A stretch of DNA of 54,427 nucleotides from a virus (Duplodnaviria > Caudoviricetes): IMG/VR virus record IMGVR_UViG_3300003465_000008, positions 1-54,427 of that record; one strand, given 5' to 3'. This document shows, one piece after another, positions 9,519 to 41,368 of the stretch; position 1 is the stretch's first letter, and every line of letters begins with the position of its first letter. The translations under genes and the position numbers were made by a program. Under the pieces are notes generated by a model. It was not told the DNA's origin, made no database searches, and saw nothing but the letters and a program-made list of their open reading frames with translations.

Positions 9519-9692
9519 CTAGTGTACTCCCAAGATGTGCGCAACCATCAATTCCAGCGCCAGTTGCACGTCGCGGTCATCGGCGAGCGGATCTTCCACG
9601 TAGGCTGCCGGGCGGCGCCTGGTCGGTGTTGGCGGCGGGGCCGCGTAGAAGGTATCGCCCGGCGCGAAGAGGCCCGGCCAGCCGCCGAACAT
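9519..9692 (-). CDS. hypothetical protein
   Basis: ATG abuts the upstream stop (TGATG). Confidence 0.45.
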   Translation of the reverse strand: MFGGWPGLFAPGDTFYAAPPPTPTRRRPAAYVEDPLADDRDVQLALELMVAHILGVH

Positions 9693-10909
9693 CAGCCACC
9701 CCCCGTCAGCATGAAACGGTCGGCGCGCTTCACGCCCGGCGCCGCGTCTCGCATCGCCGCGATCACGGCCGCGTCCACTAGGTCGGGATGCACCCACCAA
9801 TCCTCGAAACTGTTGTAGGCGTCGGGCGCAATGTCGCCCGCCACGAGCGCGTAGCCGTGCGAGCGCAGGTAGCTGCGGCTGCGCTCCTTGATGCCGGGCG
9901 TGCAGTAGTCGTCGTGCTCGAAGGTGAGAACGGCAAACCGATGGCGCTCAAGCGGCAAATTCAGTAGCACGGTGAGCGAGGTCAGCGCCGGGTCCACGTC
10001 AATCTGCAGGTAGTCGTAATCGCCTTCGAGCAACGCGGCGTAGTCGATCTGCGTGGCGTCGGCTACCAGCACGGTGCTCTGCCGACCGGCGGCGCGGAAC
10101 CGCTTATCCGTGTCGGGGTTGCGGTCGATCGAGATTCCCGACCAGCCCCACTCTTCGAGCAGTTTCGTATTGTTGCCGAATAGCGGATCGCCGCACCCGA
10201 TTTCGAGAAACCTACCGTCGCGCTTTCCAGCGAGCATCGTGAGCACGAATACGTCCTGATAAACCTGCGAGTAGTTGGTCTGGATGGCCTTCGCGCCGGG
10301 AAACTTCACGCGCAGCCGCTCGTACTGACTGGCATCGTAGGCGATCGGGTCGCGCCAGCTTTGCCCGCCGAGATTCTTCAAGTTGTTCTGGACGGCCGTG
10401 ATGTGGACAGGCAGCATGGTCGGGTTCTTATTCAGTTCGCGAAACAGGTGAACGGACTGATCGAAAAGTCCGATCCACCAGCCCGCAACCGCCTGCTCAA
10501 AAACGAGCGCGTAACTCCCCGGATAGTCCACGTTCGTCCGCAATGGCTCGCGCGCTTCGGAAAGCCGCTGCCCGAGAACGGCGAACGTGTAGGCTTCCTG
10601 CCAGTCCTTGTTCACTTCGTAGAGACGGCTCAACAGAAAATAGGCTTCGGGCCGCTCGGGCTTGAGCGCGATGGCACGCAGGAGTACGCCTTTCGTCAGC
10701 ATCACGCGGTCGCCCTGACGACTGAAACAGTTGGCGGCGCGTAGCAGCGCTTCGTAGGCGAGGAGCGCGTCGGCGGCGAATTCCGCCGTGCGAACGTAGA
10801 ACCCGGCTGCGGGCGCGGTTTGCCGCTGATCCTCGTACCAGATGCCGAGCGCGAAGTTCGCTTCGGCGTCCTCGGGTGCGCTCACGTAGCGCAAGAGTTC
10901 TGGATTCAT
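9692..10909 (-). CDS. TPR-repeat plus FkbM-like SAM methyltransferase fusion
   Basis: N-terminal TPR-like helices (AIALKPERPEAYFLLS); C-terminal SQVYQD..V...FLEIG..DP..GNNT..LE..GW.G...DYLQIDVD...FEDWWVHP; ATGA coupling. Confidence 0.8.
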   Translation of the reverse strand: MNPELLRYVSAPEDAEANFALGIWYEDQRQTAPAAGFYVRTAEFAADALLAYEALLRAANCFSRQGDRVMLTKGVLLRAIALKPERPEAYFLLSRLYEVNKDWQEAYTFAVLGQRLSEAREPLRTNVDYPGSYALVFEQAVAGWWIGLFDQSVHLFRELNKNPTMLPVHITAVQNNLKNLGGQSWRDPIAYDASQYERLRVKFPGAKAIQTNYSQVYQDVFVLTMLAGKRDGRFLEIGCGDPLFGNNTKLLEEWGWSGISIDRNPDTDKRFRAAGRQSTVLVADATQIDYAALLEGDYDYLQIDVDPALTSLTVLLNLPLERHRFAVLTFEHDDYCTPGIKERSRSYLRSHGYALVAGDIAPDAYNSFEDWWVHPDLVDAAVIAAMRDAAPGVKRADRFMLTGGG

Positions 10910-12714
10910 GTCGGCACGCCGTTTTCGCACTTCCGGCACAGATCGAACGGTGTGCCGTCCGCAGGCAGCAGTTCGTCGTAGTCCTGCCGGAAAAGGTTGC
11001 CAAGCGGATGCTCGATTGCGTAGTCCATGCAACACAGCGCCACGTCGCCGTTCGGCAGCAGCACGTTGTGATACAGGCGCTCCGGGCACCCGCACGTCGT
11101 GGGTTTCTCCTGCCGCACGACGTGAATCACATCCGGCCCCTGCACGTTGCCTGCCCGCGAATACATACCCGGCTGCACGGCGTCGGGAAACATGGCTTCG
11201 AGTTCGGGCGCGAGCTTTCCCATCCGCATCGCGCGGAAGTTCGTAAGCGGTCGCGCACGCAGTGCTTCCAACACGGCCATGTAGGAGGCCGTGAGCTTGT
11301 GCGTGAACTTGCCGTCCACATCGGGCAAGTGGAGCACGAAGCCGCCCTGCACGCCGCCAAACGGGATAGGCCGCAGGCGCTCTACATCGTCTACGGTCAT
11401 ACCGACAGCCGTTGTGAACACCGACACCCGGTGCCCGCGCTCGTGCGCGTGCATGATCATCGGCAGACAGTCCCGGTTCGCAAACGGCTCCACGAATCCC
11501 GCGAACGTGATCTGCACAGCTGGCGGTACTTTGCCGAGCATCGTCGAGAAGTCCTCGAACTTGAGGAATCGCTCCGGCACCTGGTAAGCGGCGACGAGCG
11601 GTGCTTGCGGGCAAACCGTGCAGGCCATCGGGCAACCGCGCTTCGGAACGGCCGTCGTGACTTCTAGCGTCGGGTACTTGGTCGCCCGCCACTTCTCGCG
11701 CTTAGGATGAACCTTCGCACCGAGTAGCGACTGGATCATCGCCTCCGGCACGCGAAGGATGAACGCGGCGTTATCCTGAAAGCCGAAGGTGAGCAGCCAG
11801 TCGTTTTCGTGGACCGCCATCCCGCAGCAGAATTCGACTTCGCCGGCCATGAAGGAAAAGCGTTCCGTGATCGTGACGATGCGCCAGTCGCGGTCGTACA
11901 CCACGAACCGATGCCAGTAGGTCGCATCCTTCTGCCCGGCCTGATTTTTCTTCAAGTCCACGTCATGCACGATGCACACGTAGTATCCGCACCACGGCAC
12001 AACCTGCGAACTGCCGCGCAGGAAAGGCAGGCCGTCCACCTTGCCCGCTTCATCCGGCTCCATCACGCGCCGCGACGACAAGTCCGCCAGATCCGCGCGC
12101 ACCACTTCGGCCGGGTTCGCCCACTTCACGAAGTGGAAGGGTTGATCCAGCACCGGCATCCAGTTTTTCTCGCAGTACCACTTGGGATCAACCGGATGCT
12201 CGATGCGATAGCGCGCGACTTCCTTTACTTCGGTTTCGCTAACCGAAAGCTCGGACAATTCCATGCGGCCCTGTCCGTTCGTCGTCGTGTCGCGCCGCAC
12301 GCCGATGCCGTAGAGCCGGCCGTCCCAACGCACGAGCCGCGCGTCCTCTAGCCCCACGAATTCCCATAGCGGCGGCACGTCTAACTTGCTCGTGTCGATC
12401 TTCCACCAGCGCTCGACGCTCAAGTCCGGCGCGAGTTTGCACAGGAAGTTCGTCGTGCGCAGATGTACGTCGTGTTCCGGGTTCAGGTAGGAAAGCGGCC
12501 CCCACCGGCTATTGAACGTCTGGTCGTTCTCGCAGTGATACAGCGTGTAGTTGACGTTGCGTAGGATGCACCAGATTTCACCGCGCTCCACGAACACCGA
12601 TGGGTTGCAGAGTCCCAAACCGCCGGATGCGCTCGCCGGAATCGTGAGCGGCACGATCGCGCCGCCGCGCGCGAGGACCGCGCCGACCAGGTTGCGCGTC
12701 AAAGGGGCAGCCAT
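10906..12714 (-). CDS. GH130-like five-bladed beta-propeller fused to a radical SAM/SPASM-twitch domain
   Basis: NPSV, GLEDARL, EKNWMP, LRGSS, YWHRF in the N-terminal part; CPMACTVC and LPNGDVALCCMD...GNL...CRKC in the C-terminal part. Confidence 0.75.
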   Translation of the reverse strand: MAAPLTRNLVGAVLARGGAIVPLTIPASASGGLGLCNPSVFVERGEIWCILRNVNYTLYHCENDQTFNSRWGPLSYLNPEHDVHLRTTNFLCKLAPDLSVERWWKIDTSKLDVPPLWEFVGLEDARLVRWDGRLYGIGVRRDTTTNGQGRMELSELSVSETEVKEVARYRIEHPVDPKWYCEKNWMPVLDQPFHFVKWANPAEVVRADLADLSSRRVMEPDEAGKVDGLPFLRGSSQVVPWCGYYVCIVHDVDLKKNQAGQKDATYWHRFVVYDRDWRIVTITERFSFMAGEVEFCCGMAVHENDWLLTFGFQDNAAFILRVPEAMIQSLLGAKVHPKREKWRATKYPTLEVTTAVPKRGCPMACTVCPQAPLVAAYQVPERFLKFEDFSTMLGKVPPAVQITFAGFVEPFANRDCLPMIMHAHERGHRVSVFTTAVGMTVDDVERLRPIPFGGVQGGFVLHLPDVDGKFTHKLTASYMAVLEALRARPLTNFRAMRMGKLAPELEAMFPDAVQPGMYSRAGNVQGPDVIHVVRQEKPTTCGCPERLYHNVLLPNGDVALCCMDYAIEHPLGNLFRQDYDELLPADGTPFDLCRKCENGVPT

Positions 12715-13202
12715 GCCCGCTCGCCGAGGTCAAACACTGCCGTCGCCCTTGGATTGCTTTCAGCTTGCCGCACTTGCTCGCGCGCGGCCTCGGCGCATGC
12801 GCCAAACGAGTCCATGTCCCATTCATCGCCCGCAAAGTCCGCCGTGCAGGGGCACGCTTGCCAGTGAACGGCGATGGCGCCAGCGTCATCCACGGCTACC
12901 GGAAACGCGCGGCAGGCGAGCGGCCGCTGCTCGTAGATGCCGCAGACCGCGCGTCCATCCTGAAAGCTCAGATTCGGACAGCGCGAGACGCCGAGCTGGT
13001 AGGCAAACACGCGGTCGCCCGCCCGCAGCAGCGGAAATACCATTGCGGCCGGAAAGTGTTGCGCTTCTTCCGGCGTCAGGTACATGCCGAATTCATCGCC
13101 CGGCCCAGTGCATCCCGTGCGCGTGCAGCACTGGCCGCCGCGCTTACATTCAAACGCGCGCGGCATCCTCAAGCCTGCGGACCCGCACGAGAAGGTCATC
13201 AA
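12699..13202 (-). CDS. YkgJ/FliB-like Cys-cluster (Fe-S/Zn) protein
   Basis: [10 protein letters not shown]...RCPNL...[15 protein letters not shown]. Confidence 0.8.
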
Positions 13203-14427
13203 TCGTCGCCGTGTGTTCCTTGATCGCGTTCACGGTCGCCATGACGATCGGGTGTATCTGATAGTGCAGGATGTCGGTTTCCTCGGCGTCTCCGGGATGC
13301 AGTTTCCCGCGCTCCGTATACACCGCCTCGGGGATCACGGTTTGCAGTTGGTCGGCAATCAGACCGATCACGTCGCGGCCGTCGTTCGGCGTGTCGTACA
13401 GGCCGTTGTACTTGAAGATGCAAGGCTCGACGCTGATAACGGTCTGCACGCCGTCACGGTAAGGCCGGATGTCGCGCTTCAAACGGATGTCGGAACCCGT
13501 GGCACCTTGCGGCCCTTGCGTGCCCTGGGTGCCCTGCGTTCCGGTCGCACCCTGCGTGCCGGTCGCGCCTTGACTGCCGGTCGCGCCTTGACTGCCGGTC
13601 GCGCCTTGACTGCCGGTCGCACCTTGCGTACCCGTGGTTCCCGTCGTTCCCTGCGTGCCTGTTGCCCCTTGGCTGCCGGTCGTACCTTGCGCACCCGTCG
13701 TGCCTTGGCTGCCTTGCGTGCCAGCGGCTCCCTGCGATCCAGTCGTGCCCTGCGTGCCCGTGGTGCCGGTCGCACCTTGGGTTCCCGTCGCACCTTGGCT
13801 GCCGGTCGCGCCCTGCGTGCCGGTAGCGCCCTGACTGCCTTGCGTACCCGCAGCGCCTTGCGCACCCTGCGCTCCTGTGGTCCCTGCGTCCCCTTGCGCT
13901 CCGGTCGCGCCTTGCGTTCCCGTTGCGCCCTGAGAGCCGGTCGTACCTTGCGCACCCGTCGTACCCTGCGTCCCGGTCGCGCCCTGCGCGCCGTTACTCC
14001 CAGCCGCACCCTGACTGCCAGTAGCTCCCTGAGTTCCCGTAGTTCCCGTCGCACCTTGCGCACCTGTCGGTCCCTGAGCGCCAGTCGCTCCCTGCGCGCC
14101 TTGAGGCCCAGGTAGCGCGTCCTCGATGTCCGTCAGCGTCTTTTTCGTGATCGTCGCGGCAACCTGATCGCCCACAATGACCGCGCGCGCCGTAGTGCCT
14201 TCCTGCGCGCGCGTGATCGTGAATGTGTCGCCAACGATGGCGGTCACGCGCACAATCTCGGCATTCGTCGGAATCGCCAGTTCGCCAGCCGCAGCGACAG
14301 TCATGTTGAAAGGTGGCGTCGGAAAGAGCGCGCCTTCGCCAGTCGTAACAACGAGCGAGCCGCCGCTCGCAGCCGGACTCGGCGCGACCGCCACATGACT
14401 ATTCGCAAAGTTCTTATGCTGATCCAC
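13150..14427 (-). CDS. collagen-like fibre 2 with C-terminal S74 intramolecular chaperone
   Basis: GTG start with GGAGG; about 68 uninterrupted Gly-X-Y triplets; SDIRLKRDI...FKYN...[13 protein letters not shown]. Confidence 0.85.
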
Positions 14428-26118: not shown

Positions 26119-27006
26119 CTACTCGTAGTAGTTCGGGATATAGCTCGACTCGCTTGTAGCTCGTGCCCGCTTCATCGCGTCGTCGTAGAGCGCGCGCATA
26201 TTGCGGGCTTCTTCCGGTCGCCGCGCGTTCATGAATGCGAGGTAGGCCGCGTAGTACGGCACGGCATCGGTCCACGGGTAGGGAATCGCCTCTGCCGTCG
26301 TGTCGTCCACGAGGTCAATCGGAATGCACACGCAATTCCACTGCATCGGCAAAATCGAAGTCGGCACAGGCTGCAAGTAGACCGAGCCGCCGCCGCCCTG
26401 CCCGAATTGCGCCCAAATCGCAGGCTGTCCCGACACGATCGGGTACGCGCGCACTCTCGCCTGCAAGTCGTTCCAGTTCCATTGCTCAAGCACGGGGGAG
26501 AGCGCGCCCCACGAAACCGCGATCGACTCAACGAACAGGATGGAATCGACGCCAGACGTGAGTTGCGCAAGCGCGTTGGCCGAGGCGAACGTATAGACTT
26601 CCTGATCAGCGACGGTGTTCAGGCAGTTGATGACCGGCGTCGCGGTAGCACCGGATCCGCTGCCCCCCGAGAGCGTTACCGTCGTCGTCTTGTCGTACTT
26701 CGTGCCTGCCGTGTTGACTACGATCGAACTCACGGCACCGCCCGTGAGCACGGCAGTCGCCGTCGCGCCGGAGCCTGGTCCCGTAATCGCTACGGCTGGC
26801 GCGCTGACGTAGCCGCTACCACCAGCCGTGACCGTGATCGACGCGATGCCATTCGTGGATGGCGGCAAGACCTTGATGCACTGCCCTTCGGCCGCGACTT
26901 GGCCGCGCGCCTCGTTGATCCAGAGCGTGATCGAGGCTTGCGACCAGAATTGATTGCTGGCGTCGCTGAGAAGATTCTGGACGCGCGTCAGGTATTTTGC
27001 CAGCAC
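26119..27006 (-). CDS. head-tail adaptor (tail tubular A-like) with an inserted Gly/Ser/Thr-rich domain
   Basis: YLTRVQNLL.D...WINEAR N-terminus; IPYPWTDAVPYYAAYLA C-terminus. Confidence 0.7.
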   Translation of the reverse strand: MLAKYLTRVQNLLSDASNQFWSQASITLWINEARGQVAAEGQCIKVLPPSTNGIASITVTAGGSGYVSAPAVAITGPGSGATATAVLTGGAVSSIVVNTAGTKYDKTTTVTLSGGSGSGATATPVINCLNTVADQEVYTFASANALAQLTSGVDSILFVESIAVSWGALSPVLEQWNWNDLQARVRAYPIVSGQPAIWAQFGQGGGGSVYLQPVPTSILPMQWNCVCIPIDLVDDTTAEAIPYPWTDAVPYYAAYLAFMNARRPEEARNMRALYDDAMKRARATSESSYIPNYYE

Positions 27007-27010
27007 GCCG

Positions 27011-27868
27011 TCACGCGAGACTCACGAACTTCTCTAGGCCCGGTTCGCCCTGACGGACCATTTCGCTCGTGAGGCCGTCGCCATGCAACGTAACGTGCAG
27101 GAATTCCCGCCAGTTCTCCACCAGCCGGAAGAACTGCTCGACTTGCGTCATCAGTGCCAAGTTGCTCACGAAGAAGCGCTTGCCGACCCATACCGGCTTT
27201 TTCTCGTACTCGTATTCGCCCGCCACGTCGCAGGCGTGGTAGCTCGCGCCGTGCGGCGCGTAGCAGTTGTCGAAGCCGAAGAAGTGCTGGTGCTGGAACC
27301 CCATCATCATCGCAATGTTGATCGAGACGAGCGTCGCCGTAGAACCCCAGCAAATCGACTGCTCGCCGTTCAGCAGCGCTGGTTCATCTTCGATCTTCGC
27401 GACCGCTTGCCCGCGGTAGTGCCACATTTCCACGCGGTGCCCGGCAAGCTGATCGAACAGGGCGGGATCGCACTGCGAGGCAATGAGGTAGAGCGTTTCG
27501 GCCTGCGGGAGCGAGAGGTTGCCCTTATCTTCGACTCCGGCGTCGCACACCACTGCGTAGGTCGGGACAATCCCCTGCCGCACGACGTGATCGTGCGCAG
27601 AGCCGCAGACCAAGATGTTGCGGAACTGCCGAAGTTCGTCCCAGCGCTCGTTCAGCGAATGCCCGCAGGACACGATTGCGATAGGCTCGCCGATCCGCGC
27701 GCTCGCGCGTCCGCTTGTCTCTACGAAACGCGAGAGCGCGCGAGGCAGGTTCGCGCGAATGTTCGCGGCAAGCCGCTCGGTGGGAACGAGCGTGTAGGTC
27801 GAGACCGTTAGCGCTACGGTACTGCCGTCATCCCGGCGAACGTCGATGTAGCCTTGAGGCGTGTCCAT
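27011..27868 (-). CDS. DUF115 (MAF_flag10/MptE-like) protein, putative Maf-type glycosyltransferase
   Basis: IAIVSCGHSL, GIVPTYAVVCDA, ASQCDP..F, GSTAT...INIAMMMGF...FFGFDNCY. Confidence 0.7.
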   Translation of the reverse strand: MDTPQGYIDVRRDDGSTVALTVSTYTLVPTERLAANIRANLPRALSRFVETSGRASARIGEPIAIVSCGHSLNERWDELRQFRNILVCGSAHDHVVRQGIVPTYAVVCDAGVEDKGNLSLPQAETLYLIASQCDPALFDQLAGHRVEMWHYRGQAVAKIEDEPALLNGEQSICWGSTATLVSINIAMMMGFQHQHFFGFDNCYAPHGASYHACDVAGEYEYEKKPVWVGKRFFVSNLALMTQVEQFFRLVENWREFLHVTLHGDGLTSEMVRQGEPGLEKFVSLA

Positions 27869-27881
27869 GCCGTCTCATGGC

Positions 27882-29024
27882 TTAGATCGGCTCGAGCCAA
27901 CTCGTATCGGTAACGCCGCCGACGATCGCGGTTTCCGGCAGCGCGCCGGTAACGCCCGTGATCGCGAGCAGTTGCCCGATGTAGGCGAGCGACGGAACTC
28001 CTTGAATCCCGAAGCCGCCATCTTCGACCACCGAGCCAGTGACGACGATCTGGTTCGAAGTAAGCGCCGTCTGAATCCGCGCCGGCCGCGGGAAGGTCGC
28101 GCCCTTCTCGTGCAGCGGGTTCGTCCAGACCGGCGTCGCGCTGACGATGTTGCCGATCGTCGTCAGGATCGGCGTGGTGCCAGTCGCGAACGTCGTGCCG
28201 GTGAGGAGCGCGTTGAAGCTCGTCACCGTGAAGTTCATGATCGCGGTCGCGCCAGCCGCGCCTACCGAAAAGGCAAGCGTCGGCACACCAGTCAGCGGCA
28301 CACCCTGGTTGTTCGGATACAGGCCGGTCAGCAAGCCCGTGCCCGTGCATTTCAGCCGCACATGAACGCCGCTTCCCACGGTGTCGCGCGGGTCGTTGAT
28401 GAACGTGATCGTCGCCGCGGCGTAACCGTCTGCCTTGATCGCGTAGCCCGCACCTTGGTTGTCGATTACCACTTGCGCGGCGAGGAGTGCACCGCCCGTG
28501 ACCGTACAGTGCGCTGTCGCCTGCAGCCCGCCGGGCGGCGGAGCGCTGATGATGACGGTCGGCGGGTAGAGGTAGCCCGCGCCCACCGTATCGCCGATCA
28601 CGCCGGTTGCCGCCGTCACGCCGGTAACAACCGTGGTGGAAAGCGCGCCGCCCACGATCGGCACCCAGGTCGATGCGCCCGAGGAAGGCGTCACGGTGAG
28701 AGCAGTCGCCGTCGCCCCGATGCCGGTCGTCGCGCCGGTCGCTGCGGCCGTGGTGATGACTGCGGCCACCGGACAGCCGGTCAGGTTCGCCAAGCGGAAA
28801 TTCCCGCCATCGGAATTCACTTGTTTCGCGACGAACGTATTCGCCGCGCCGATCGTGCGCCAGATCCCGGTCACGGGATCGAGTTGCTGCAGGCTCGTGT
28901 AGGCTCCGAGCGTCACCGCGTAGTTGCCCGCCGGGATGATGTAGCTCACTCCCGCCGGCAGCGTGATCGCGTTGGTGTCCTTGCCTCTCAGACCGAGGCC
29001 GATTCCTTGTCCGCCGATAAGCAT
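27882..29024 (-). CDS. Thr/Gly/Ala-rich capsid decoration/structural protein
   Basis: Directly downstream of the major capsid gene; AAGGAG RBS. Confidence 0.65.
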   Translation of the reverse strand: MLIGGQGIGLGLRGKDTNAITLPAGVSYIIPAGNYAVTLGAYTSLQQLDPVTGIWRTIGAANTFVAKQVNSDGGNFRLANLTGCPVAAVITTAAATGATTGIGATATALTVTPSSGASTWVPIVGGALSTTVVTGVTAATGVIGDTVGAGYLYPPTVIISAPPPGGLQATAHCTVTGGALLAAQVVIDNQGAGYAIKADGYAAATITFINDPRDTVGSGVHVRLKCTGTGLLTGLYPNNQGVPLTGVPTLAFSVGAAGATAIMNFTVTSFNALLTGTTFATGTTPILTTIGNIVSATPVWTNPLHEKGATFPRPARIQTALTSNQIVVTGSVVEDGGFGIQGVPSLAYIGQLLAITGVTGALPETAIVGGVTDTSWLEPI

Positions 29025-29042
29025 TTGCTTTTCTCCTTGGTC

Positions 29043-30062
29043 CTAGAATGCGCCCCCGGTGATCCCGGTCAACTGCATTCCGCTGATCGGTTTCGCGCAC
29101 ACGAGCTGCATCGCGATGATGACCACGCCGACGTTCGCCACTTGCAGATTCGGGATCGCCGAGAAGAACCCCGAGAACGCGAACGGCGCGTCTTCCGATA
29201 CGTAGGCCGCGAAGTACTTCGTGTTCAGCATGTACGCCGTGCCCTTCGGGCAGAACGGATCGAGGAAGAACGGCGTGTCGCCGAGCAGCAACCCTCGGAA
29301 GCCCGAGTTCACCTGGTCGTCCTTGCCCCAGCGCGAGTTCGGCGTGTTCACGAACTGCTCGAGCGAGAGAAAGTCCTGCATGAGCGCGGTCCAGTCGGAC
29401 GGACTCATGACCACGAAGTCGGGCGCTTCGCCACCGTTGAGCGACGTTGCCTGCACGAGGTAGCCGAGCATCGCTGAGCGTGTGTTGACGGCGCCCGCGC
29501 TTGAGACGAGCGTGGACTTCCAGAACGTGCTGGCGGTTCGGCTGATCCCGCCGTAGGTCGTCACGTTCGTACCGTCATCGAACGCCTGTGGCAGGCCGTT
29601 GATGACTTGCGAGCCGTTCGGAAGCACGGAGTTGTTCGTGAACGCGGCGGTGGAGATCGCCTGCACAGCGACGGTCTTTGCGTCCGCCATGCGGGCGCGC
29701 ATGAGCGGGATGATCGCTTCGCTTGACTGAATCAGCGCTTCCATCCCCATGAAGCTGATCGGCACGACGCCTACGCAGAGGTTGAATTCCGCGTTCTGCA
29801 TGCCGGGCTGCACGGCGGGCTGCGGGAAGCCGCCCGAGTAGTCGGTCCACGCGAAGTTCACGAAGCTCGAGCCTTGCACGGGCACCGTGACCTGAGAGAC
29901 GCCGCCGCGCGCCTTCTGCGCGGTGCCAAAGAGCAGGTTCAGGAACGGCGTCGCCTTGTAGATTTGCACAAAGAGCGCCGGGACCACCGCGCGTCTTGTG
30001 GCCGCGACGAGTTCACTCCCTGCCGCGCCGCCAGGGACCAGACCGAGATTTAGTTGTGGCAT
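29043..30062 (-). CDS. major capsid protein
   Basis: 339 aa after the scaffold-like gene; ELVAATRRA...VQIY...YGGISR....FWKS pattern. Confidence 0.8.
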   Translation of the reverse strand: MPQLNLGLVPGGAAGSELVAATRRAVVPALFVQIYKATPFLNLLFGTAQKARGGVSQVTVPVQGSSFVNFAWTDYSGGFPQPAVQPGMQNAEFNLCVGVVPISFMGMEALIQSSEAIIPLMRARMADAKTVAVQAISTAAFTNNSVLPNGSQVINGLPQAFDDGTNVTTYGGISRTASTFWKSTLVSSAGAVNTRSAMLGYLVQATSLNGGEAPDFVVMSPSDWTALMQDFLSLEQFVNTPNSRWGKDDQVNSGFRGLLLGDTPFFLDPFCPKGTAYMLNTKYFAAYVSEDAPFAFSGFFSAIPNLQVANVGVVIIAMQLVCAKPISGMQLTGITGGAF

Positions 30063-30095
30063 TTTCTTGTCCTATCGCGTGGGAAAGTCGCTGCG

Positions 30096-30674: not shown

Positions 30675-30686
30675 GTGCGCCTCCCG

Positions 30687-30890: not shown

Positions 30891-30891
30891 G

Positions 30892-31284: not shown

Positions 31285-31295
31285 GGTCCTTCGCC

Positions 31296-31340
31296 CTAGC
31301 GGCGACCGCGCCGCTTGGCTTTGCGCATGCGCTTGGCCAT
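31296..31340 (-). CDS. 14-aa basic micropeptide MAKRMRKAKRRGRR
   Basis: AAGGAG RBS 5 nt upstream of the ATG; first ORF after a predicted promoter. Confidence 0.55.
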   Translation of the reverse strand: MAKRMRKAKRRGRR

Positions 31341-31420
31341 GTTCGCTCCTTCGGAGTGTGCCAATTTTGTCGGGATCAGCAATACCCGCGTTACCGTCAC
31401 AGCGACGACTTGTGGCTGCC

Positions 31421-31449
31421 AACGTAGCGCGGCGCAGCAAGGTTGTCAA
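31421..31449 (-). promoter_or_regulatory. sigma70-like promoter for the capsid genes
   Basis: TTGACA-17 nt-TACGTT on the minus strand. Confidence 0.5.
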
Positions 31450-31473
31450 CTCCTTGATTCGACAACATTTTTT

Positions 31474-31497
31474 TGCTCAAGCATCATGCTCAAGCAT
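31474..31497. promoter_or_regulatory. tandem 11-bp repeat TGCTCAAGCAT x2, candidate operator
   Basis: Copies at 31474-31484 and 31487-31497 in the AT-rich divergent intergenic region. Confidence 0.4.
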
Positions 31498-31536
31498 TTT
31501 CAGAGGGAAATGCGTAGAATTTCCTGCACTACAGGC

Positions 31537-32595
31537 ATGGAAAACAAAACGGAAAAACGCATGCGTCTGCGCAAGGCCGCGCGCAAGGGCGGCTTGAAGG
31601 GAGGGCGGGCGCGGGCACGACGCCTAGCGGCAGCGCGCCGCCGCGCAATCGCGCAGCGCGCAGCGAAGGCGCGTTGGGCCGATGCAGTGGTGTCACCGCC
31701 GCACGCAGTGAGTACATGGAGCGCGCGAGCGCAACGCACGCCGTTTCTCATCGCGGAAATCGGCATCAACCACAACGGGAAACTTGAACTCGCGAAGCGC
31801 ATGATTCGCGCCGCAAAGGACGCGGGTTTTGATGCGGTGAAGTTCCAGAAGCGCGCGATTGAACGCGTCTACACAGCGGAATTCTTGGCGAGTCCGCGCA
31901 CGAGTCCGTGGGGCAGCACGCAGCGCGAGCAAAAGGAAGGATTGGAATTTTCCGCCGCCGCGTATCGTCACATCGACCGCTACTGCGAGTCATGCGGAAT
32001 CGCGTGGTCGGCTTCCGCTTGGGATCTGGATAGCCAAGCGTTCCTGCGGCAATTCGATCTGCCGTTCAACAAGGTCGCGTCGCCGATGCTCGGCCACCGG
32101 CCGCTACTCGCCGAGATTGCGGCCGAGCGCAAGCACACGTTCATTTCGACCGGCATGTCCACGCTCGCCGAGCTTGACGAAGTGGTGGAGTTATTCGTGC
32201 GCGCGAATTGTCCGTTCGAACTCATGCACTGCAATTCGACTTACCCGATGCCGGACGAGGACGCGAACCTGCTCTGCATTCCGATGCTGCGCGAGCGCTT
32301 CGGCTGCAACGTAGGCTACTCCGGGCATGAGACGAGCGTGACGAAGGTATGCGTCGCGGCCGTCGCGCTCGGCGCAACTTCGATCGAGCGCCACATCACG
32401 CTCGACAAGACGATGTACGGCTCGGATCAAGCGGCGTCCGTCGAAACGCACGACCTCGCGAACTTCGTGCAGGTAGTGCGCGCGATCCCGCTCGTACTCG
32501 GAACCGGCAAGAAGGAAGTCACGGAAACCGAATGGCCAGCGCGCAAGAAACTGCGCGTCGAAGTGCCGGCGACGCCGGTCGCGCAAGCCGCATGA
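31537..32595 (+). CDS. neuB: nonulosonic acid (N-acetylneuraminate-type) synthase with a basic N-terminal extension
   Basis: IAEIGINHNG, DAVKFQKR, KVAS, ISTGM, LMHCNSTYP, GYSGHE, IERHITLD..MYGSDQAAS. Confidence 0.92.
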   Translation: MENKTEKRMRLRKAARKGGLKGGRARARRLAAARRRAIAQRAAKARWADAVVSPPHAVSTWSARAQRTPFLIAEIGINHNGKLELAKRMIRAAKDAGFDAVKFQKRAIERVYTAEFLASPRTSPWGSTQREQKEGLEFSAAAYRHIDRYCESCGIAWSASAWDLDSQAFLRQFDLPFNKVASPMLGHRPLLAEIAAERKHTFISTGMSTLAELDEVVELFVRANCPFELMHCNSTYPMPDEDANLLCIPMLRERFGCNVGYSGHETSVTKVCVAAVALGATSIERHITLDKTMYGSDQAASVETHDLANFVQVVRAIPLVLGTGKKEVTETEWPARKKLRVEVPATPVAQAA

Positions 32596-33320
32596 GCTAC
32601 AACCTCGCGCTGATCGGCGCGCGCTCGGGTTCCAAGGGCGTGCCCGGCAAGAACGTGCGGATGCTCGGCGGGCACCCCTTGCTCGCGTGGGCGATCCGCG
32701 CCGCCGCGCACACCGAAGGCATCGACCGCATCATCGTGTCCAGCGACTCGCAAGCTTACTGCGATCTGGCGCGCCACTACGGCGCGGAAGTCCCCTTCCT
32801 GCAGCCGGAAAAGACGGCGCGCGACGACTCCGGCGACTACCCGTTCGTGAAGCACGCAATCGAGTGGATCGGCGACCATGAAAGCAGTTATCCCGAAAAA
32901 ATCGTGCTGCTGCGGCCCACCACGCCGCTCCGCGAGCCGAAGGTGATCGCGGAAATCATGAAGGTGCTGCGCTACGACCAGATGAATCAGTACAGCGCGG
33001 TGCGCAGCGTTCACGAAATGGCGGAATCCGCGCACAAGTGCTTTCACGTCATCAAGATGCGCCTGCAACGGCTCGACGGCTCGTACTCGATTGACGCCGC
33101 GAACCGCCCGCGTCAGCGCTACCCCAAGACCTACCACGCGAACGGCTACGCCGATGTGTTCGGCGTCGAATACGTCCGCACGCACTGCGTGCTCTTTGGT
33201 GGCCGCGTGCGCGCCTTCATCACGCCGCGCACCACCGAAGTCGATACGGAGGAAGATTTGAACTACCTAGAATACGAAGTCCGCAAACACGAATCGCTGA
33301 TCGGAAGGTTATTTTCATGA
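32592..33320 (+). CDS. neuA: acylneuraminate cytidylyltransferase (CMP-nonulosonate synthetase)
   Basis: LIGARSGSKGVPGKN...GHPL, VSSDS, LRPTTPLR, RQ..PKTY.ANG, EVDTEED. Confidence 0.9.
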   Translation: MSYNLALIGARSGSKGVPGKNVRMLGGHPLLAWAIRAAAHTEGIDRIIVSSDSQAYCDLARHYGAEVPFLQPEKTARDDSGDYPFVKHAIEWIGDHESSYPEKIVLLRPTTPLREPKVIAEIMKVLRYDQMNQYSAVRSVHEMAESAHKCFHVIKMRLQRLDGSYSIDAANRPRQRYPKTYHANGYADVFGVEYVRTHCVLFGGRVRAFITPRTTEVDTEEDLNYLEYEVRKHESLIGRLFS

Positions 33321-34666
33321 GAACAGGATTCGCGAACGACATGCGTCGCGCCTGGGCGGTGCAGACCAGCTATCGCAACATCATGAAGGGCAGCGTGAGC
33401 GAACTGCCGACGCAATCCTTCTTTTACCGGCTCGGCCAAGTCGAGGCGCGTTCCATGCACGGTCAGTTGCCTGTCGTCTGGTCGCGCGCGAAGGATTACA
33501 GCGTGTGGGACGCGGCCGGCAATCAATATCTCGATTTCACGTCCGGCATCTTCGCGGCGAACCTCGGGCATTCGGATGACGCGCTGCTCGGGAGTTTGAG
33601 AGCCGCGCTCGAGGCCGGCTTGCTGCACTGCTACACCTACGGCACGCGATTGCGGCTTGAATACCTCGAAGCGCTCACCGAGTGGAGCGGATTCGAGAAA
33701 GCCTATCTTGTGTCCTCGGGCACGGAAGCCACGGAAACCGCGCTGCGACTGATGCGGCTACACGGCGAGAAGGTCGGCAAGGCAAGGCGTGCCGTGGTCT
33801 GTATCGACGGCAGTTTCCACGGTCGCACGCTCGGCGCCGCGTTGATGGGCGGCTCGGGTCGCGAGGAAGCGCGGGCGAACGGGATCTACCACATCGCACC
33901 GCCTGCGCTTCACGCCCCCGATAGCGTCAATCACTTCTTCACGGTCAGCCTCGGCGCGCTGTGGGATCAGGAGTGCGACCCAGAGCGCGATGTATGCGGC
34001 TTCCTGATTGAGACCTATCAGGGCTGGAACGCGCGCTTCTACCAGCCTGCGTTTGTGCAGGCGATCGAGAAGTTCTGCCGCGATCACGGCATCCTGCTCG
34101 CCTTCGATGAAGTGCAGGCTGGATTCGGGCGCACGGGCCGCAAGTTCGGCTACCTGCACTACGGCGTGCGGCCGGACCTGATCTGCGTCGGCAAGGGCAT
34201 GGGCGGCGGCTTTCCGCTGGCGGGCGTGCTCGGGAGTGCGGCAATCCTTGACCTACCGGCACCCGGCGACATGAGCAGCACGCACGGCGCGAATCCCTTG
34301 GCTTGCGCGGCGGGGCTTGCCGTGATCGAGGAAATCGAACGCCGGAATCTCGTCGGAGAAGCCGAGCGCAAGGGTCGCCTGCTTGCCAAGGAACTCGAAA
34401 AGATCGTGACGAGCTTCCCGCGCCGCATCGCCTACGCGAGTGCTCAAGGACTCGTTGCGGCGCTCGTTTTTCAGGGCGACGAATCGTCCGAGTTCGCAAC
34501 GCGCGTCGCGCACGAGTGCCTGCGCCGCGGGCTGCTCATCGTGCATACTGGCCGCGAATCCGTGAAACTCGGCCCACCGCTCAGCATTCCCGATGACGCC
34601 CTAGCCGAAGGAACGTATGTCCTCACCGAAGCCATTGCCAGTGCCAGCAATGCCGAACAAGGTTGA
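33317..34666 (+). CDS. class III PLP aminotransferase
   Basis: WDAAGNQYLDF.SG...NLGH, SGTEATE, SFHGRT, FDEVQAGFGRTG, GKGMGGGFP, THGANPL. Confidence 0.9.
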   Translation: MRTGFANDMRRAWAVQTSYRNIMKGSVSELPTQSFFYRLGQVEARSMHGQLPVVWSRAKDYSVWDAAGNQYLDFTSGIFAANLGHSDDALLGSLRAALEAGLLHCYTYGTRLRLEYLEALTEWSGFEKAYLVSSGTEATETALRLMRLHGEKVGKARRAVVCIDGSFHGRTLGAALMGGSGREEARANGIYHIAPPALHAPDSVNHFFTVSLGALWDQECDPERDVCGFLIETYQGWNARFYQPAFVQAIEKFCRDHGILLAFDEVQAGFGRTGRKFGYLHYGVRPDLICVGKGMGGGFPLAGVLGSAAILDLPAPGDMSSTHGANPLACAAGLAVIEEIERRNLVGEAERKGRLLAKELEKIVTSFPRRIAYASAQGLVAALVFQGDESSEFATRVAHECLRRGLLIVHTGRESVKLGPPLSIPDDALAEGTYVLTEAIASASNAEQG

Positions 34667-34895: not shown

Positions 34896-35737
34896 ACGCT
34901 CCGCTCGCGATTGATCTGTTCTGCGGACTCGGCGGCTGGACCGAAGGATTGCTATCCGAAGGCTATTACGTCGTTGGCTTCGACGTAGAACGCCATCATT
35001 ACGGCAGCGAAAAATATCCCGCGCAATTAGTCCTCCAAGACGTGCTGACAATCCACGGTAAGCAGTTCAAGGATGCCGCGTTGATCGTCGCTTCGCCGCC
35101 ATGCCAGGAATTCAGCTACATGGCGATGCCGTGGTCGAAGGCGAAAGCGATCCGCGCCGAGTACTTGAGCGGAAAGCGCGCCGTAAAGAAGCTCACTGCG
35201 CTATTCGACGCTTGCTTTCGTATCCAGCGCGAAGCAATTGAGGCCGCTGGTCGGTTCATTCCGCTGGTAGTCGAGAACGTGCGTGGCGCTTGCGAATGGG
35301 TCGGGCGGTCGCGCTGGAATTACGGATCGTTCCATCTTTGGGGCGATGTGCCTGCGCTGATGCCGATGACGAAGGCGGTGAAGGTTCCGGGGATGAATTG
35401 GTCAGGGTTGGACAAGCCCGGTTACGTGGCCGTAGCGTTCAACGATGCGCGGCATACGAAAAACAACGGCGGCTCATGGTTCAACATCGGCTCTCCGGGG
35501 CAAAAGGTCACGAATCAGAATCCGGTGTCTGGTGCCAAGAACATGAACATTCACATGCCCTACGCGGAATTGAAAGATCACGTTAAGCAGGGAGGCGATT
35601 GGTTTAATTCCGAGCAGCCGTCAATCAGTAGACTAACTGGCAGCAAGTCAGCCGCGCGCAAGGCCGCATCGGCGCGCATTGCGAAAATACCTTTTCCGCT
35701 CGCGCAGCACATCGCACGCTATTGGAAGCCACAATGA
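34892..35737 (+). CDS. atypical C5 DNA cytosine methyltransferase-like protein
   Basis: IDLFCGLGG (motif I), ASPPCQEFS (IV), VVENV (VI); divergent C-terminus. Confidence 0.75.
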   Translation: MNAPLAIDLFCGLGGWTEGLLSEGYYVVGFDVERHHYGSEKYPAQLVLQDVLTIHGKQFKDAALIVASPPCQEFSYMAMPWSKAKAIRAEYLSGKRAVKKLTALFDACFRIQREAIEAAGRFIPLVVENVRGACEWVGRSRWNYGSFHLWGDVPALMPMTKAVKVPGMNWSGLDKPGYVAVAFNDARHTKNNGGSWFNIGSPGQKVTNQNPVSGAKNMNIHMPYAELKDHVKQGGDWFNSEQPSISRLTGSKSAARKAASARIAKIPFPLAQHIARYWKPQ

Positions 35738-36162
35738 TCCTCGGCCTTCGGCACGTCGGCATCGTGGTATCGGACCTTGAGCGACAGGTAGACTTCTACT
35801 GTGGCGTCCTCGGCTTTCGCGTCTTGAAGCGCATGGACGAGTCGGGCGAGGAAGTGGACCGCATGCTCGGCATCGAGGATGCCGATGTCACCACGGTAAA
35901 ACTCATCGCGCCAGGAGGCGGCGTGGTCGAACTGCTGAAATTCCATTCACCGGAGTGCCGCGAGTCCGACGACCGCGAACTGCACGATTTGGGTATCTCG
36001 CACATCGCGCTGACGCTCACGGACTTGTACGCCGAATACGCGGACCTCTCGCGTAAGGGCGTGCGGTTCATTTCCCCTGTGGAACGCTCCGGGGACGCCT
36101 ACGTCGCGTTCTGCTTCGACCCCGAGGGCAACGTGCTCGAATTGGTGCAGGCGACGCAGTGA
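35734..36162 (+). CDS. VOC/glyoxalase family protein
   Basis: RHVGIVVSDLE...FY..VLG, VELLKF, HIAL, DPEGNVLELV. Confidence 0.88.
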   Translation: MILGLRHVGIVVSDLERQVDFYCGVLGFRVLKRMDESGEEVDRMLGIEDADVTTVKLIAPGGGVVELLKFHSPECRESDDRELHDLGISHIALTLTDLYAEYADLSRKGVRFISPVERSGDAYVAFCFDPEGNVLELVQATQ

Positions 36163-36434
36163 AGCGCGTCATCCGCACGCCCATGCAGCAACGCCTGACG
36201 CGCGTTGCGTTCGCCGTGAAGAAGGCGCTCGGCCTGCCCTATGTGCGGCCGAAACCCTACCGCAACGGCAGGCTGTTCGTGATCTTCATGCACGAGCGCC
36301 CCGGACACTGCTGCCGCGTTCCGAATCTCTCGCTGGTCGCGTCGATTGAGGATGTGGTCGCAACCTGTCGCAAAGCGTGGGAGGAGTTTCTGAAAGAGGA
36401 ACGCGAGGCGATGCAGGAGGAAACCGCGCCGTGA
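36159..36434 (+). CDS. hypothetical protein
   Basis: GTGA-coupled at both ends. Confidence 0.55.
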   Translation: MKRVIRTPMQQRLTRVAFAVKKALGLPYVRPKPYRNGRLFVIFMHERPGHCCRVPNLSLVASIEDVVATCRKAWEEFLKEEREAMQEETAP

Positions 36435-37237
36435 GTCTCGTAGGTATTTCACAAATAAACATCGAACTTTCCTCGCGCTGCGACAAGCACACTTTGTGCT
36501 TCATGTGCGGGCACCAGAACGAGAAGCTGAATGCATCGCTCAAATACGGCGACATGGATTTCGCGCTGCTGCAACGCATTCGCGCGCAAATTGAGCCGCC
36601 GGTCATCGTGTCCTTTCACCGCGACGGCGACCCGCTCGTTTACCCGCGCCTCGCCGCCGCACTCGCCCTATTCCGAGACTTCCCGACTTCTGTCGTCACG
36701 CACGGCGAAGCATTGGCGAGGCGGGCCGCAGAAATCATCGGCAACTGTACGATCGTCACGGTGTCCGTCATTCCCAATGACGAGGATCGCGACATTCAGC
36801 TTGCCTCCGTCGCGCAATTCCTGCGGCTCAAAGGCGAAGCGCCGCCGCGCGTGCAACTGAAATTCGTCGGTGCCGTGAAGGATAGCGAACGCTACGAAGC
36901 GCTCGGCGTGCCGATCATCAACCGCGCGCTGCACTCGGCCAAGGGAAACTGGAACTACGTCCGCATGAAGCCGAGCGTTCCGGAGATTGGCACTTGCCTA
37001 GATTTCTTGTCCCGCCCTACCGTCGATTGGCGCGGCAGGATGTTTATTTGTAACCGCTTGGACGTTGAGGATGCCGGCCTGCTCGGCGACCTGAACACGC
37101 ACACGCTGGAGGAGCTTTGGAACGGGCCTGAGCGCAAGCGGATGCTCGCCGCGCACCTGGCCGGACGGCGAGAGGATGCGAACGCGCTTTGCGCGCGCTG
37201 CGAGTCCTACGGCATCCCGACGCCAAGCGGGTACTGA
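36431..37237 (+). CDS. radical SAM/SPASM protein
   Basis: NIELSSRCDKHTLCFMC, GDPL.YP, C...VDWRG....C...GDLN..TL.ELWNG...CARC. Confidence 0.82.
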   Translation: MSLVGISQINIELSSRCDKHTLCFMCGHQNEKLNASLKYGDMDFALLQRIRAQIEPPVIVSFHRDGDPLVYPRLAAALALFRDFPTSVVTHGEALARRAAEIIGNCTIVTVSVIPNDEDRDIQLASVAQFLRLKGEAPPRVQLKFVGAVKDSERYEALGVPIINRALHSAKGNWNYVRMKPSVPEIGTCLDFLSRPTVDWRGRMFICNRLDVEDAGLLGDLNTHTLEELWNGPERKRMLAAHLAGRREDANALCARCESYGIPTPSGY

Positions 37238-40196: not shown

Positions 40197-40421
40197 CTAG
40201 AACGAAGTCGGCTTGGCAATCGCTCGCGTCAGCGCCATGAAGCCTTCTTGCAAGTGCGTGCGTGCGATGGAGGCCCACCGCTTGTCCGTGTCGGGATTCG
40301 CGTTGACGATTTCCAGTTCCGCGCCGCACTTCGCGGCGAGACCCTTGACCATGTTCATCAGGTCGATTTCCGCTTGCGACAGATCACGGTAGCCGGTAAT
40401 CATCTTGTGCTGGTTTTCCAT
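40197..40421 (-). CDS. acb2: Acb2-like anti-CBASS cyclic-oligonucleotide sponge
   Basis: MENQHKMITGYRDLSQAEIDLMN.VK...RWASIARTHLQEGFMALTRAIAKPTSF closely follows the Acb2 pattern. Confidence 0.85.
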   Translation of the reverse strand: MENQHKMITGYRDLSQAEIDLMNMVKGLAAKCGAELEIVNANPDTDKRWASIARTHLQEGFMALTRAIAKPTSF

Positions 40422-40438
40422 TTGCTACTCCTTTTTGG

Positions 40439-41368
40439 TTACGAACACTCCATGAATAGATTGCTCGTCTGCCCGCGATCCCGCAGGTAGTCGGTATACA
40501 TGCGGTCGATCTGCGTGAGCGCGTTCGCGAGCCACGCCGCAATGTGCTCGTCCCGTGCGGCGAACTTGATCGGTGCCAAGCCGGGGTGGCACTCGGCAAG
40601 CGGCCTTCCGTTTACAAGCCATTGCAGCGTGCCGAGCAGGTTGTAGTCCTGCGTGAAACTCACGGCGACGTTCGCGAACCCGGCCGCCTCGCCAAGCCTG
40701 CGCAGCGACTTCGCCGAGAAGTAAAACAGGTGGTCGGCGTGAAAGTAGAAGCGCTCGTACTCGGGTACGCCCCAAGCAGTGCGCAGCGCGTCGTGCAGGT
40801 TAGGAACTTCGACGAACAGCACACCGCCCGGAGCGAGTACGGAACGCATGCCCTTCATGAGCGCAAGCGGGTCATCGACGTGCTCAAGCGTCTGGAAACA
40901 GCACACGGCGTCGAACTTGTCTTGCGCAAACTTGGACTCGCGCAGGACACGATGGTCGGCTTCGATGCCAAGCGATTCCATGAACGCGCAGCACTCGCGA
41001 TCCGGTTCGACGGCGCAACGCCGCTGGTAGCCGACAAGGTGCGCGAGAAACTGCCCGGCTGACGCGCCGACTTCAAGGACGCGCGAGCCGCCGCCCGCGC
41101 GCTTTTGCAAGCGGTCCAAGCGCTCGCCCTGATATTGGCTGTACGCCTCGAAAATCTCCCGCGCGTTCGTGGTCGAGCCGTCAGCGCGGTGCGAGGCGTG
41201 CTGGCGGTACTCGCCGTCGTAGTAGGCGGCGTCGCGCGGTTCGGCAACGAGGAAGGCAAGCTCGCAGGTTTCGCACTCGTACACCGCGCCCGCGCCGCGA
41301 CGCAACTCACGCGTGAGAACGCGCACGTCGTCCGATCTGCACCACGGCGCTGCGCAAAGCACGGTCAT
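40439..41368 (-). CDS. class I SAM methyltransferase with N-terminal Cys cluster (type often found in glycan clusters)
   Basis: VLEVGASAG, FDAV..FQTLEHVDDP, L.PGG.LFVEVPN, HLFYFS. Confidence 0.85.
   Translation of the reverse strand: MTVLCAAPWCRSDDVRVLTRELRRGAGAVYECETCELAFLVAEPRDAAYYDGEYRQHASHRADGSTTNAREIFEAYSQYQGERLDRLQKRAGGGSRVLEVGASAGQFLAHLVGYQRRCAVEPDRECCAFMESLGIEADHRVLRESKFAQDKFDAVCCFQTLEHVDDPLALMKGMRSVLAPGGVLFVEVPNLHDALRTAWGVPEYERFYFHADHLFYFSAKSLRRLGEAAGFANVAVSFTQDYNLLGTLQWLVNGRPLAECHPGLAPIKFAARDEHIAAWLANALTQIDRMYTDYLRDRGQTSNLFMECS

Follow-up and report, generated by a model that had tools for sequence, protein, structure and literature searches.

The window analysed here is the whole of the virus record IMGVR_UViG_3300003465_000008, 54,427 bases in length, whose first 99 bases are identical to its last 99. 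This direct terminal repeat of 99 nt and an estimated completeness of 100% mark the window as a complete phage genome. The minus strand is the coding strand for most of its genes, including that of a stand-alone Maf-like DUF115/MptE-like protein of 285 amino acids (27011..27868), which we propose as a cytidine monophosphate (CMP)-ulosonic-acid transferase. This gene is located between the major capsid gene (29043..30062, minus strand) and the gene of an adaptor-like protein (26119..27006, minus strand), with the gene of a 380-amino-acid protein (27882..29024, minus strand) on its capsid side. A cassette of sugar genes occupies 31.3–37.2 kb of the plus strand. The original prediction, made from the sequence alone, had proposed a phage-encoded system that coats the virion with a sialic-acid-like sugar and had named four sets of parts: sugar genes, the DUF115 gene, Ser/Thr-rich acceptors, and further tailoring enzymes. 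All four were located at or near the positions assigned to them, with family matches far beyond chance.

The product of 27011..27868 matched MptE-like PF01973 in Pfam (E value, 5.2e-12; 46.3 bits against a gathering cut-off of 34.6). A large protein collection contained 58 relatives of like length, several of them from contigs of 54–57 kb; all contained PF01973, and none bore an informative name. An AlphaFold (AF2) model built on an alignment of 25 relatives reached a predicted local distance difference test (pLDDT) score of 92.6, and its best Foldseek match was Maf of Magnetospirillum (5mu5; E value, 2.7e-8). In VIA-align, the model was superposed on Maf residues 244–504 with a Z score of 20.8 and a root-mean-square deviation of 2.8 Å over 221 residues, followed by archaeal HPPK/MptE (a pterin pyrophosphokinase; Z 14.5), SteA (Z 10.3), and thiamin pyrophosphokinases (Z 7–8); eukaryotic and Campylobacter sialyltransferases gave Z 8–10. 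The family profile matched the 5mu5 Maf sequence with an E value of 1.2e-8, compared with 0.49 for HPPK, and the motifs GxGPS, FG(F/V)D, and HH were aligned between the family and Maf. Based on the fold match, the profile match, and the aligned motifs, the protein is predicted to be a stand-alone version of the Maf catalytic domain, in agreement with the earlier assignment of a DUF115/Maf-like gene among the capsid and adaptor genes. The family is large, its profile retrieving 7,119 of 1.84 billion cluster representatives at E ≤ 0.001, 2,485 at 1e-10, and 1,124 at 1e-30. The nearest ESM-Atlas clusters were 94–100% viral and many were fused to methyltransferases, which is taken as a lead and not as a test.

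The sugar cassette begins with an open reading frame (ORF) at 31315..32595 (plus strand), whose predicted product is a NeuB-family ulosonic acid synthase that condenses phosphoenolpyruvate (PEP). It matched PF03102 over the full 241-position profile (E value, 5e-66). The start of this ORF is uncertain; an in-frame ATG is located at 31537, and the NeuB domain begins near 31801. The protein scored 242.5 bits against NeuB_NnaB (TIGR03569) and 172.7 bits against PseI (TIGR03586), below the respective equivalog cut-offs of 399.65 and 340.25. No C-terminal SAF (antifreeze-like) domain was matched in the window NeuB, the NCBIfam match covering positions 2–279 of 329, and its closest sequence match in the PDB (6ncs; E value, 1.9e-33) is likewise a SAF-less NeuB, of 290 amino acids. 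Across 10 phage NeuBs, E14, K42, Q44, H204, E224, and H226 were invariant, and we take these columns to be the catalytic and metal-binding ones. A strongly Arg/Lys/Ala-rich stretch ahead of the NeuB domain (31537–31716, plus strand) is absent from the 276-amino-acid homologue in G001, the closest long relative of the window; it could represent an extension of the N-terminus or reflect a start codon set at the wrong position.

The following ORF (32349..33320, plus strand; likely start at 32592) would encode a NeuA/PseF-like CMP-ulosonic acid synthetase. It matched CTP_transf_3 (PF02348; E value, 1.7e-16; 61.1 bits against a cut-off of 22.6) and scored 111.6 bits against PseF (TIGR03584), below the equivalog cut-off of 205.7. 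Further along the plus strand are genes for a class-III aminotransferase (33317..34666; Aminotran_3, PF00202; E value, 3.5e-79), a VOC/glyoxalase-fold protein (35722..36162; PF00903; E value, 1.8e-21), and a small radical-SAM/SPASM protein (36377..37237; SPASM; E value, 9.5e-8), for which a search of PDB sequences returned nothing useful. The sugar families of the original prediction were thus all matched at the level of NeuB, CTP_transf_3, Aminotran_3, VOC, and SPASM domains, and the more specific equivalog assignments (NeuB, PseI, and PseF) were not attained. Pfam scans of the window detected none of PseB/LegB, PseC/LegC, PseH, PseG, and NeuC. A C5 DNA-methylase-like ORF (34835–35737, plus strand; partial match to profile positions 4–77) interrupts the block and is located elsewhere in G001; it does not belong to the sugar genes.

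The position of the DUF115 gene was compared across viral records (G) and loci (L). A locus scan with the single window protein returned one relative only, and an alignment-based scan of viral contigs returned 29 loci. An iterated hidden Markov model search identified a capsid gene of the window family in 23 of the 29, always on the strand of the first DUF115 gene and 0.3–0.7 kb upstream of it. The usual order was the capsid gene, an ORF of approximately 190 amino acids, one to three DUF115 genes in tandem (two or three in 7 loci), an ORF of approximately 130 amino acids, and an SU10-type adaptor gene; in the clade of the window (L001–L004 and L247), the 380-amino-acid protein is encoded between the capsid gene and DUF115. 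In other phages, which were reached by way of their NeuB genes, DUF115 was likewise part of the head module. DUF115 followed a phrog_334-type capsid gene unrelated to that of the window in G053 and G055, was found beside head-closure genes in G049, and came directly after an SU10-type portal gene preceded by NeuB in G074 and G075; in the latter, the order TerL, NeuB, portal, DUF115 places NeuB on one side of the portal gene and DUF115 on the other. DUF115 is fixed in the head modules of several unrelated phage lineages. Methyltransferase domains were fused to DUF115 in L019, L021, L026, and L250 and adjoined it in L247, and a sugar-type C-methyltransferase was encoded nearby in L018.

In L009–L012 and L014–L016, two or three tandem DUF115 paralogues follow the capsid gene, and the ORFs of approximately 260 amino acids in between matched no Pfam family. 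This arrangement is reminiscent of Campylobacter and Aeromonas, which carry multiple maf genes.

NeuB (PF03102) was present in 9 of the 29 DUF115 viral records (4 of 5 plus 5 of 24) and in 7 of the 10 that were at least 90% complete (3 of 3 plus 4 of 7), as counted without regard to shared ancestry in records picked by pattern scans. As a background, NeuB occurs in 3 of 50,697 GenBank phage records. A NeuB alignment scan of a viral collection of 2.9 million contigs yielded 396 NeuB stretches, of which 80 were kept; by simple arithmetic from 396 stretches, far less than one co-occurrence would be expected by chance in 29 records. For the converse test, 50 of these 80, mostly from contigs longer than 20 kb, were chosen and 49 NeuB-bearing viral records were searched; MptE-like PF01973 was detected at E ≤ 0.001 in 18 (over the cut-off in 11) and in 4 of the 12 near-complete NeuB phages. 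The link between NeuB and DUF115 is strong and far above background, yet not obligatory, and the co-occurrence for which the original prediction had called is largely borne out.

Some further features of the DUF115 records may be mentioned here. Homologues of the cell-cycle regulator GcrA are encoded in G002 (L043, 13152–13823) and G009 (L159, 8855–9547), which suggests alphaproteobacterial hosts for the group; G009 also carries an integrase. In the NeuB-less record G021, where DUF115 is fused to a methyltransferase, a thymidylate-synthase-like gene adjoins a 5-hydroxymethyldeoxyuridine (5-hmdU) DNA kinase gene (L162, 3835–5862), a thymidine hypermodification module.

The sugar genes that accompany DUF115 were not uniform. 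A cassette of the window type was found in G001 at a different genome position. G053 and G049 encode a SAF-less NeuB, a class-IV aminotransferase, a radical-SAM/SPASM protein of the window family, and a cytidylyltransferase; G055 has a similar cassette in which the radical-SAM/SPASM protein was not detected. G002 has NeuB with a weak cytidylyltransferase match and a DegT aminotransferase. Clusters comprising a PseB/LegB-type dehydratase, a DegT aminotransferase, NeuB, a HisF-like protein, a GNAT protein, and a cytidylyltransferase are present in G004, G005, G012, G013, G014, G016, and G020, and the NeuBs of G004, G013, G014, and G016 possess the SAF domain. The variation of the sugar genes from one lineage to the next, in both content and position, argues against a purely inherited pairing with DUF115, and the replacement of the class-III aminotransferase by a class-IV or DegT enzyme suggests that the amination step is essential.

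Two oddities were observed in the Pse/Leg-type clusters. In G005, G020, and G012 (L045, L049, and L050, respectively), NeuB-like proteins of 215–220 amino acids in which the central part of the barrel is missing (profile positions ~121–172) are encoded next to a DHHA1-domain protein within full clusters. In G014, an IS605 OrfB/TnpB-like gene (L047, 14157–15578; OrfB_IS605 plus a Cas12f-like TNB domain) is situated beside the nonulosonic acid cluster.

Homologues of the window NeuB with 60–74% identity were found in genomes and metagenome-assembled genomes of many phyla, including those of Pelagibacter, Methylophilaceae, Rhodospirillaceae, Legionella, Lachnospiraceae, and Selenomonas. Of these, 80 bacterial loci were kept and compared by tblastn of the window proteins within 8 kb of NeuB. 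Homologues of the window NeuA occurred near 55 of them, the aminotransferase near 15, the VOC protein near 13, the methyltransferase encoded at 40439 in the window near 15, and the small radical-SAM/SPASM protein near 4. Pfam annotation of four loci (L168, L178, L218, and L243) revealed a recurring set in polysaccharide-type surroundings: a SIS isomerase, a HAD phosphatase, a SAF-less NeuB, a xylose-isomerase-like TIM barrel, a cytidylyltransferase, a class-III aminotransferase, a VOC protein, methyltransferases, and two short-chain dehydrogenases. Because these bacterial loci hold a fuller recurring set with the same families, the phage cassette appears to be a trimmed copy of an uncharacterised ulosonic acid pathway found across bacterial phyla.

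The genes kept together with the system were examined in two relatives. G001, an 88%-complete record whose DUF115 protein is 58% identical to that of the window, keeps the terminase, portal, scaffold, capsid protein, 380-amino-acid protein, DUF115, and adaptor-like protein. Its cassette proteins are 73% (NeuB), 44% (NeuA), 52% (aminotransferase), 54% (VOC), and 62% (radical-SAM/SPASM) identical to those of the window; the aminotransferase gene follows NeuB–NeuA, and the VOC gene is syntenic with that of the window. G002, a complete genome of 42 kb, shares only the head block and NeuB, and NeuB is the sole non-structural gene that the window, G001, and G002 have in common alongside that block. 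The SAM methyltransferase gene of the window (40439..41677, minus strand; Methyltransf_23; E value, 2.7e-25) has a 48% identical homologue in G001 and is also kept in L003. Its homologues occur in bacterial NeuB cassettes, and phage DUF115 can have a methyltransferase fused to it or encoded alongside; the product of the window gene therefore probably tailors the sugar or the glycoprotein, which makes the role originally proposed for it plausible. The two methyltransferase candidates of the window have no detectable similarity to each other.

Other parts named in the original prediction did not hold up in this comparison. The window encodes two collagen fibres on the minus strand (13150–14502; Collagen, 3.6e-33, with a C-terminal Peptidase_S74 domain, 2.5e-9; and 14414–15718; Collagen, 1.4e-17, with Peptidase_S74 below the cut-off at 18.7 against 22). 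On the same strand, within 9692..13202, are genes that Pfam assigns to a TPR protein (the 9692 gene), a radical-SAM/SPASM protein of 602 amino acids (10906–12714; SPASM, with Radical_SAM below the cut-off), and a CxxCxxCC protein (12699–13202). Neither the fibres nor any of these three proteins had a match in G001 or G002; they are accordingly not conserved parts of the system. The 602-amino-acid protein has no detectable similarity to the small radical-SAM/SPASM protein of the cassette; its Atlas neighbours, noted as a lead only, are of viral origin and join an unknown N-domain to SPASM and FkbM methyltransferase domains.

With regard to the acceptor, two candidates are encoded next to the DUF115 gene. 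One is the major capsid protein (phrog_9953 major head protein; E value, 8.9e-25), and the other is the Gly/Ala/Thr-rich 380-amino-acid protein, a candidate head decoration protein by its position, which is kept in L001–L004 and L247. The latter matched no Pfam or PHROG family, and its structure model from a 6-row alignment had a pLDDT of 35 and was unusable. The adaptor-like protein, a head-closure candidate with a repeat-domain insert at residues ~50–130, showed domain matches to phrog_460 (head closure Hc2) and phrog_10775 (tail protein), no Pfam match, and no pairwise similarity to an SU10_adaptor-positive relative; only their positions and weak PHROG domain matches underlie the labels 'decoration' and 'adaptor'. 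Ser and Thr make up 19% of the 380-amino-acid protein and 21% of both fibres; the richest protein of the virion region was a different one, encoded at 22710–24344 (29%). In a distant SU10-like group, a Ser/Thr-rich loop such as SSSTSG or SSSTTAVGG is inserted in the capsid protein; the capsid protein of the window has no such loop, and its clade has the extra Thr-rich 380-amino-acid protein instead. The order of the genes, with DUF115 next to the capsid gene, favours a head protein as the acceptor. A complex prediction for the capsid protein and DUF115 gave a score of 0.24 against a mark of 0.32 and was used neither way.

From these parts, the following route may be envisaged. It is established that NeuB enzymes condense PEP with an aldose and that the products are activated with CMP, and Maf-dependent transfer of nonulosonates to flagellin is likewise established. 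In the phage, the mobile cassette would consist of the SAF-less NeuB, the NeuA-like cytidylyltransferase, the aminotransferase, the VOC protein, and the small radical-SAM/SPASM protein, probably with the 40439 methyltransferase. NeuB would condense PEP with a host-derived aldose, and the product would be tailored by amination, possibly also by methylation, and activated as a sialic-acid-like CMP-ulosonic acid. The radical-SAM enzyme might generate the keto group for the aminotransferase in the manner of the sugar dehydrogenase BtrN, a role that we only infer. DUF115, encoded with the late head genes, would then transfer the sugar from CMP to Ser/Thr of the major capsid protein or of the 380-amino-acid protein encoded between the capsid gene and DUF115; shielding, adhesion, or mimicry may be the benefit.

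Taken together, the family memberships, fold, gene order, and co-occurrence observed here point to a phage that makes CMP-ulosonic acid and uses a stand-alone Maf-like transferase to place the sugar on its own head protein, a reading that we consider probable, if not firmly so. Of the flagellin-type glycosylation of the particle first proposed, it retains the link between NeuB/NeuA-type activation and a head-module DUF115 and abandons the fibres as the conserved acceptors. Several points weigh against it. No glycan has been observed; neither gene order nor composition singles out the acceptor protein and site; and the upstream Pse/Leg/Neu steps are missing from the window, so that the gene set does not fix the identity of the sugar. 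The co-occurrence counts ignore shared ancestry, as stated above, and tblastn of two DUF115 members against the 50,697 GenBank phage records retrieved no relative; the lineage is known from metagenomes only. In addition, the window cassette is a separate unit on the strand opposite to the head genes, beyond a strong terminator (37465–37445) that closes the portal operon, and the nearest NeuB relatives are found among bacterial polysaccharide genes, in loci that also encode GDP-mannose enzymes, an ABC transporter, and a carbamoyltransferase, to which a role at the host surface fits equally well. The cassette might accordingly alter the capsule, lipopolysaccharide, or flagellin of the infected cell, for example to block superinfection or to keep progeny off debris, with DUF115 acting on a host protein or not involved at all. 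The original prediction had regarded neu genes kept independently of DUF115 and the fibres as a sign of such conversion, and this was found in part: 8 of the 12 near-complete NeuB phages lack PF01973, and 3 of the 10 near-complete DUF115 phages are devoid of NeuB. A phage protein with an endosialidase N-terminal extension would also suit this explanation. We nevertheless regard it as unlikely, as DUF115 is fixed within the head modules of several unrelated lineages and lacks the flanking domains of bacterial Maf, and Pfam scans of the window found no polysaccharide glycosyltransferase, flippase, or polymerase and no integrase.

The absence of the N- and C-terminal flanking domains (285 amino acids compared with the 632-residue 5mu5 chain) is at the same time a departure from Maf, and the invariant CGSAHD of the phage family, with its His-Asp, reads CGTASR in Maf. 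Since the fold is common to HPPK, SteA, and the thiamin pyrophosphokinases at the Z scores given above, DUF115 could instead be a nucleotide-binding, pyrophosphokinase-like protein or a structural or assembly protein of the head, and its pairing with NeuB could stem from ancestry or habitat. Three of the 10 near-complete DUF115 records (G009, G018, and G021, all complete) would agree with this, as they contain neither NeuB nor CTP_transf_3 nor any other sugar-nucleotide family. Maf, however, stands far above the other matches in both fold and profile score; the co-occurrence extends across different capsid and portal families and across sugar clusters that differ in content and placement; and the methyltransferase fusions and the nearby sugar-type C-methyltransferase fit the tailoring of a glycan. 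A non-transferase role is thus quite unlikely in our view. As for the acceptor, the Thr-rich collagen repeats of the tail fibres could be glycosylated, given their GxT/GxS repeats and Ser+Thr content, and from family knowledge of S74 domains, a cleavage is implied after which the collagen stalk would be without a head. The fibres cannot be the conserved acceptor, because they are absent from G001 and G002, which keep DUF115 and NeuB, and in 23 of 29 loci the gene to which DUF115 is tied is the capsid gene, not a fibre gene; that the fibres and not the head are the acceptors appears improbable. Hypermodification of the phage DNA with the activated sugar is the least credible of these explanations and can hardly be expected. 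Several DNA methyltransferases in the genome and the thymidylate-synthase-like and 5-hmdU DNA kinase genes of the DUF115 phage G021 would be in line with it, but none of the hydroxymethyl-pyrimidine synthase, DNA kinase, and DNA glycosyltransferase families is represented in the window, and the missing base-hydroxymethylation genes make it unlikely; the position and fold of DUF115 also suggest a protein substrate.

The remaining features of the window were assigned by Pfam and PHROG matches. The large terminase (44954–46828), the portal protein (37495–39159), a scaffold-like protein (30096–30674), and a run of large virion proteins down to ~15.7 kb are all encoded on the minus strand, and the matches of the capsid and portal proteins to phage SU10 models were weak. 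Tail tube, sheath, and tape-measure families were not found in the window by Pfam, and a podophage is plausible from this gene content. The G + C content is approximately 0.57–0.67 across the window, which contains no tRNA genes that might hint at the host. BlastN analysis of 27011–34666 against GenBank phages gave no match, and no relative in culture emerged from the searches made. A protein of 624 amino acids (6583–8457, minus strand) contains an endosialidase N-terminal extension domain (E value, 2.6e-7) and has no sequence relative in the PDB; it is a candidate tailspike, and this extension, together with the S74 domains of the fibres, may hint that the host surface itself bears acidic sugars. 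Adjoining the 40439 methyltransferase gene is that of a 74-amino-acid protein with an Acb2/Tad1 hairpin domain (40197–40421, minus strand; E value, 1.1e-18), which is likely a cyclic-nucleotide sponge against CBASS- or Thoeris-type defence. A second partial C5 DNA-methylase match (53915–54427, plus strand; profile positions 251–322) continues into the terminal repeat and past the end of the window, and with the ORF at 34835–35737 it may form a split or permuted C5 methylase.

The proposed system shares features with several known ones. The phage protein resembles Maf of M. magneticum (5mu5) in its DUF115/MptE-like domain, with Maf as its closest fold and the GxGPS, FGxD, and HH motifs, in its genomic tie to NeuB/NeuA-type genes, and in the several paralogues per genome of some phage members. 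It differs in corresponding to the central domain only, in its location in a head module and not a flagellar locus, with a capsid protein instead of flagellin as the presumed acceptor, and in the invariant CGSAHD, which is the phage family's own; its activity is a prediction. The cassette resembles the bacterial NeuB/PseI/LegI and NeuA/PseF/LegF pathways in having a NeuB-family synthase with the conserved columns followed by a CTP_transf_3 cytidylyltransferase, and distant DUF115 phages have full PseB/PseC/PseH/PseI/PseF-type clusters. In contrast to those pathways, the window has a SAF-less NeuB below all equivalog cut-offs and, in place of the upstream enzymes, a class-III aminotransferase, a VOC protein, and a radical-SAM/SPASM protein.

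Virus-encoded glycosylation of virions has precedents. In mycobacteriophages, phage enzymes reportedly O-glycosylate the phage's own capsid and tail proteins (Freeman et al., 2023, Cell Host Microbe); these phages are reported to rely on ordinary GT-A/GT-B glycosyltransferases with host nucleotide sugars in actinobacterial hosts. The present system would instead combine a Maf-like transferase with the phage's own CMP-ulosonic acid pathway. Mimivirus and chloroviruses glycosylate their own capsids or fibrils by virus-encoded sugar pathways of bacterial type. As in those giant viruses, both the synthesis of the nucleotide sugar and, here by prediction, its transfer to the particle are encoded by the virus; the giant viruses have eukaryotic hosts and use other sugars and transferases, whereas the phages discussed here are small tailed phages of 42–92 kb. 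A full-text literature search returned no report of nonulosonic acids on phage virions or of DUF115/MptE-like/Maf genes in phage head modules. The combination therefore seems to consist of known kinds in a new variation, well supported by comparative genomics.

More broadly, it is conceivable, and we put it forward tentatively and short of conviction, that several unrelated lineages of tailed phages sialylate their capsids through a large, virus-dominated Maf-like family, stand-alone or fused to methyltransferases, whose genes adjoin that of the major capsid protein. The donor would be supplied by phage-borne nonulosonic acid pathways, including a compact and uncharacterised route from a common host sugar to an amino-ulosonic acid by a SAF-less NeuB, an aminotransferase whose class can be exchanged, a radical-SAM/SPASM enzyme, and a CMP-transferase, of which the window would be a complete example. 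If this is true, nonulosonic protein glycosylation would extend beyond flagella, pili, and S-layers to phage heads and would be common in nature. It would bear on the survival of particles, their sticking to surfaces or mucus, the evasion of recognition, and the avoidance of re-adsorption to debris, and on why phages carry 'metabolic' sugar genes. To our knowledge, little is understood of how Maf enzymes work and select their acceptors, and minimal Maf-type transferases of 260–300 residues with defined protein acceptors would be of use to enzymology and may serve as tools for site-specific protein glycosylation. The compact NeuB/aminotransferase/radical-SAM cassette, common to many bacteria including SAR11-type genomes, points to an undescribed ulosonic acid pathway.

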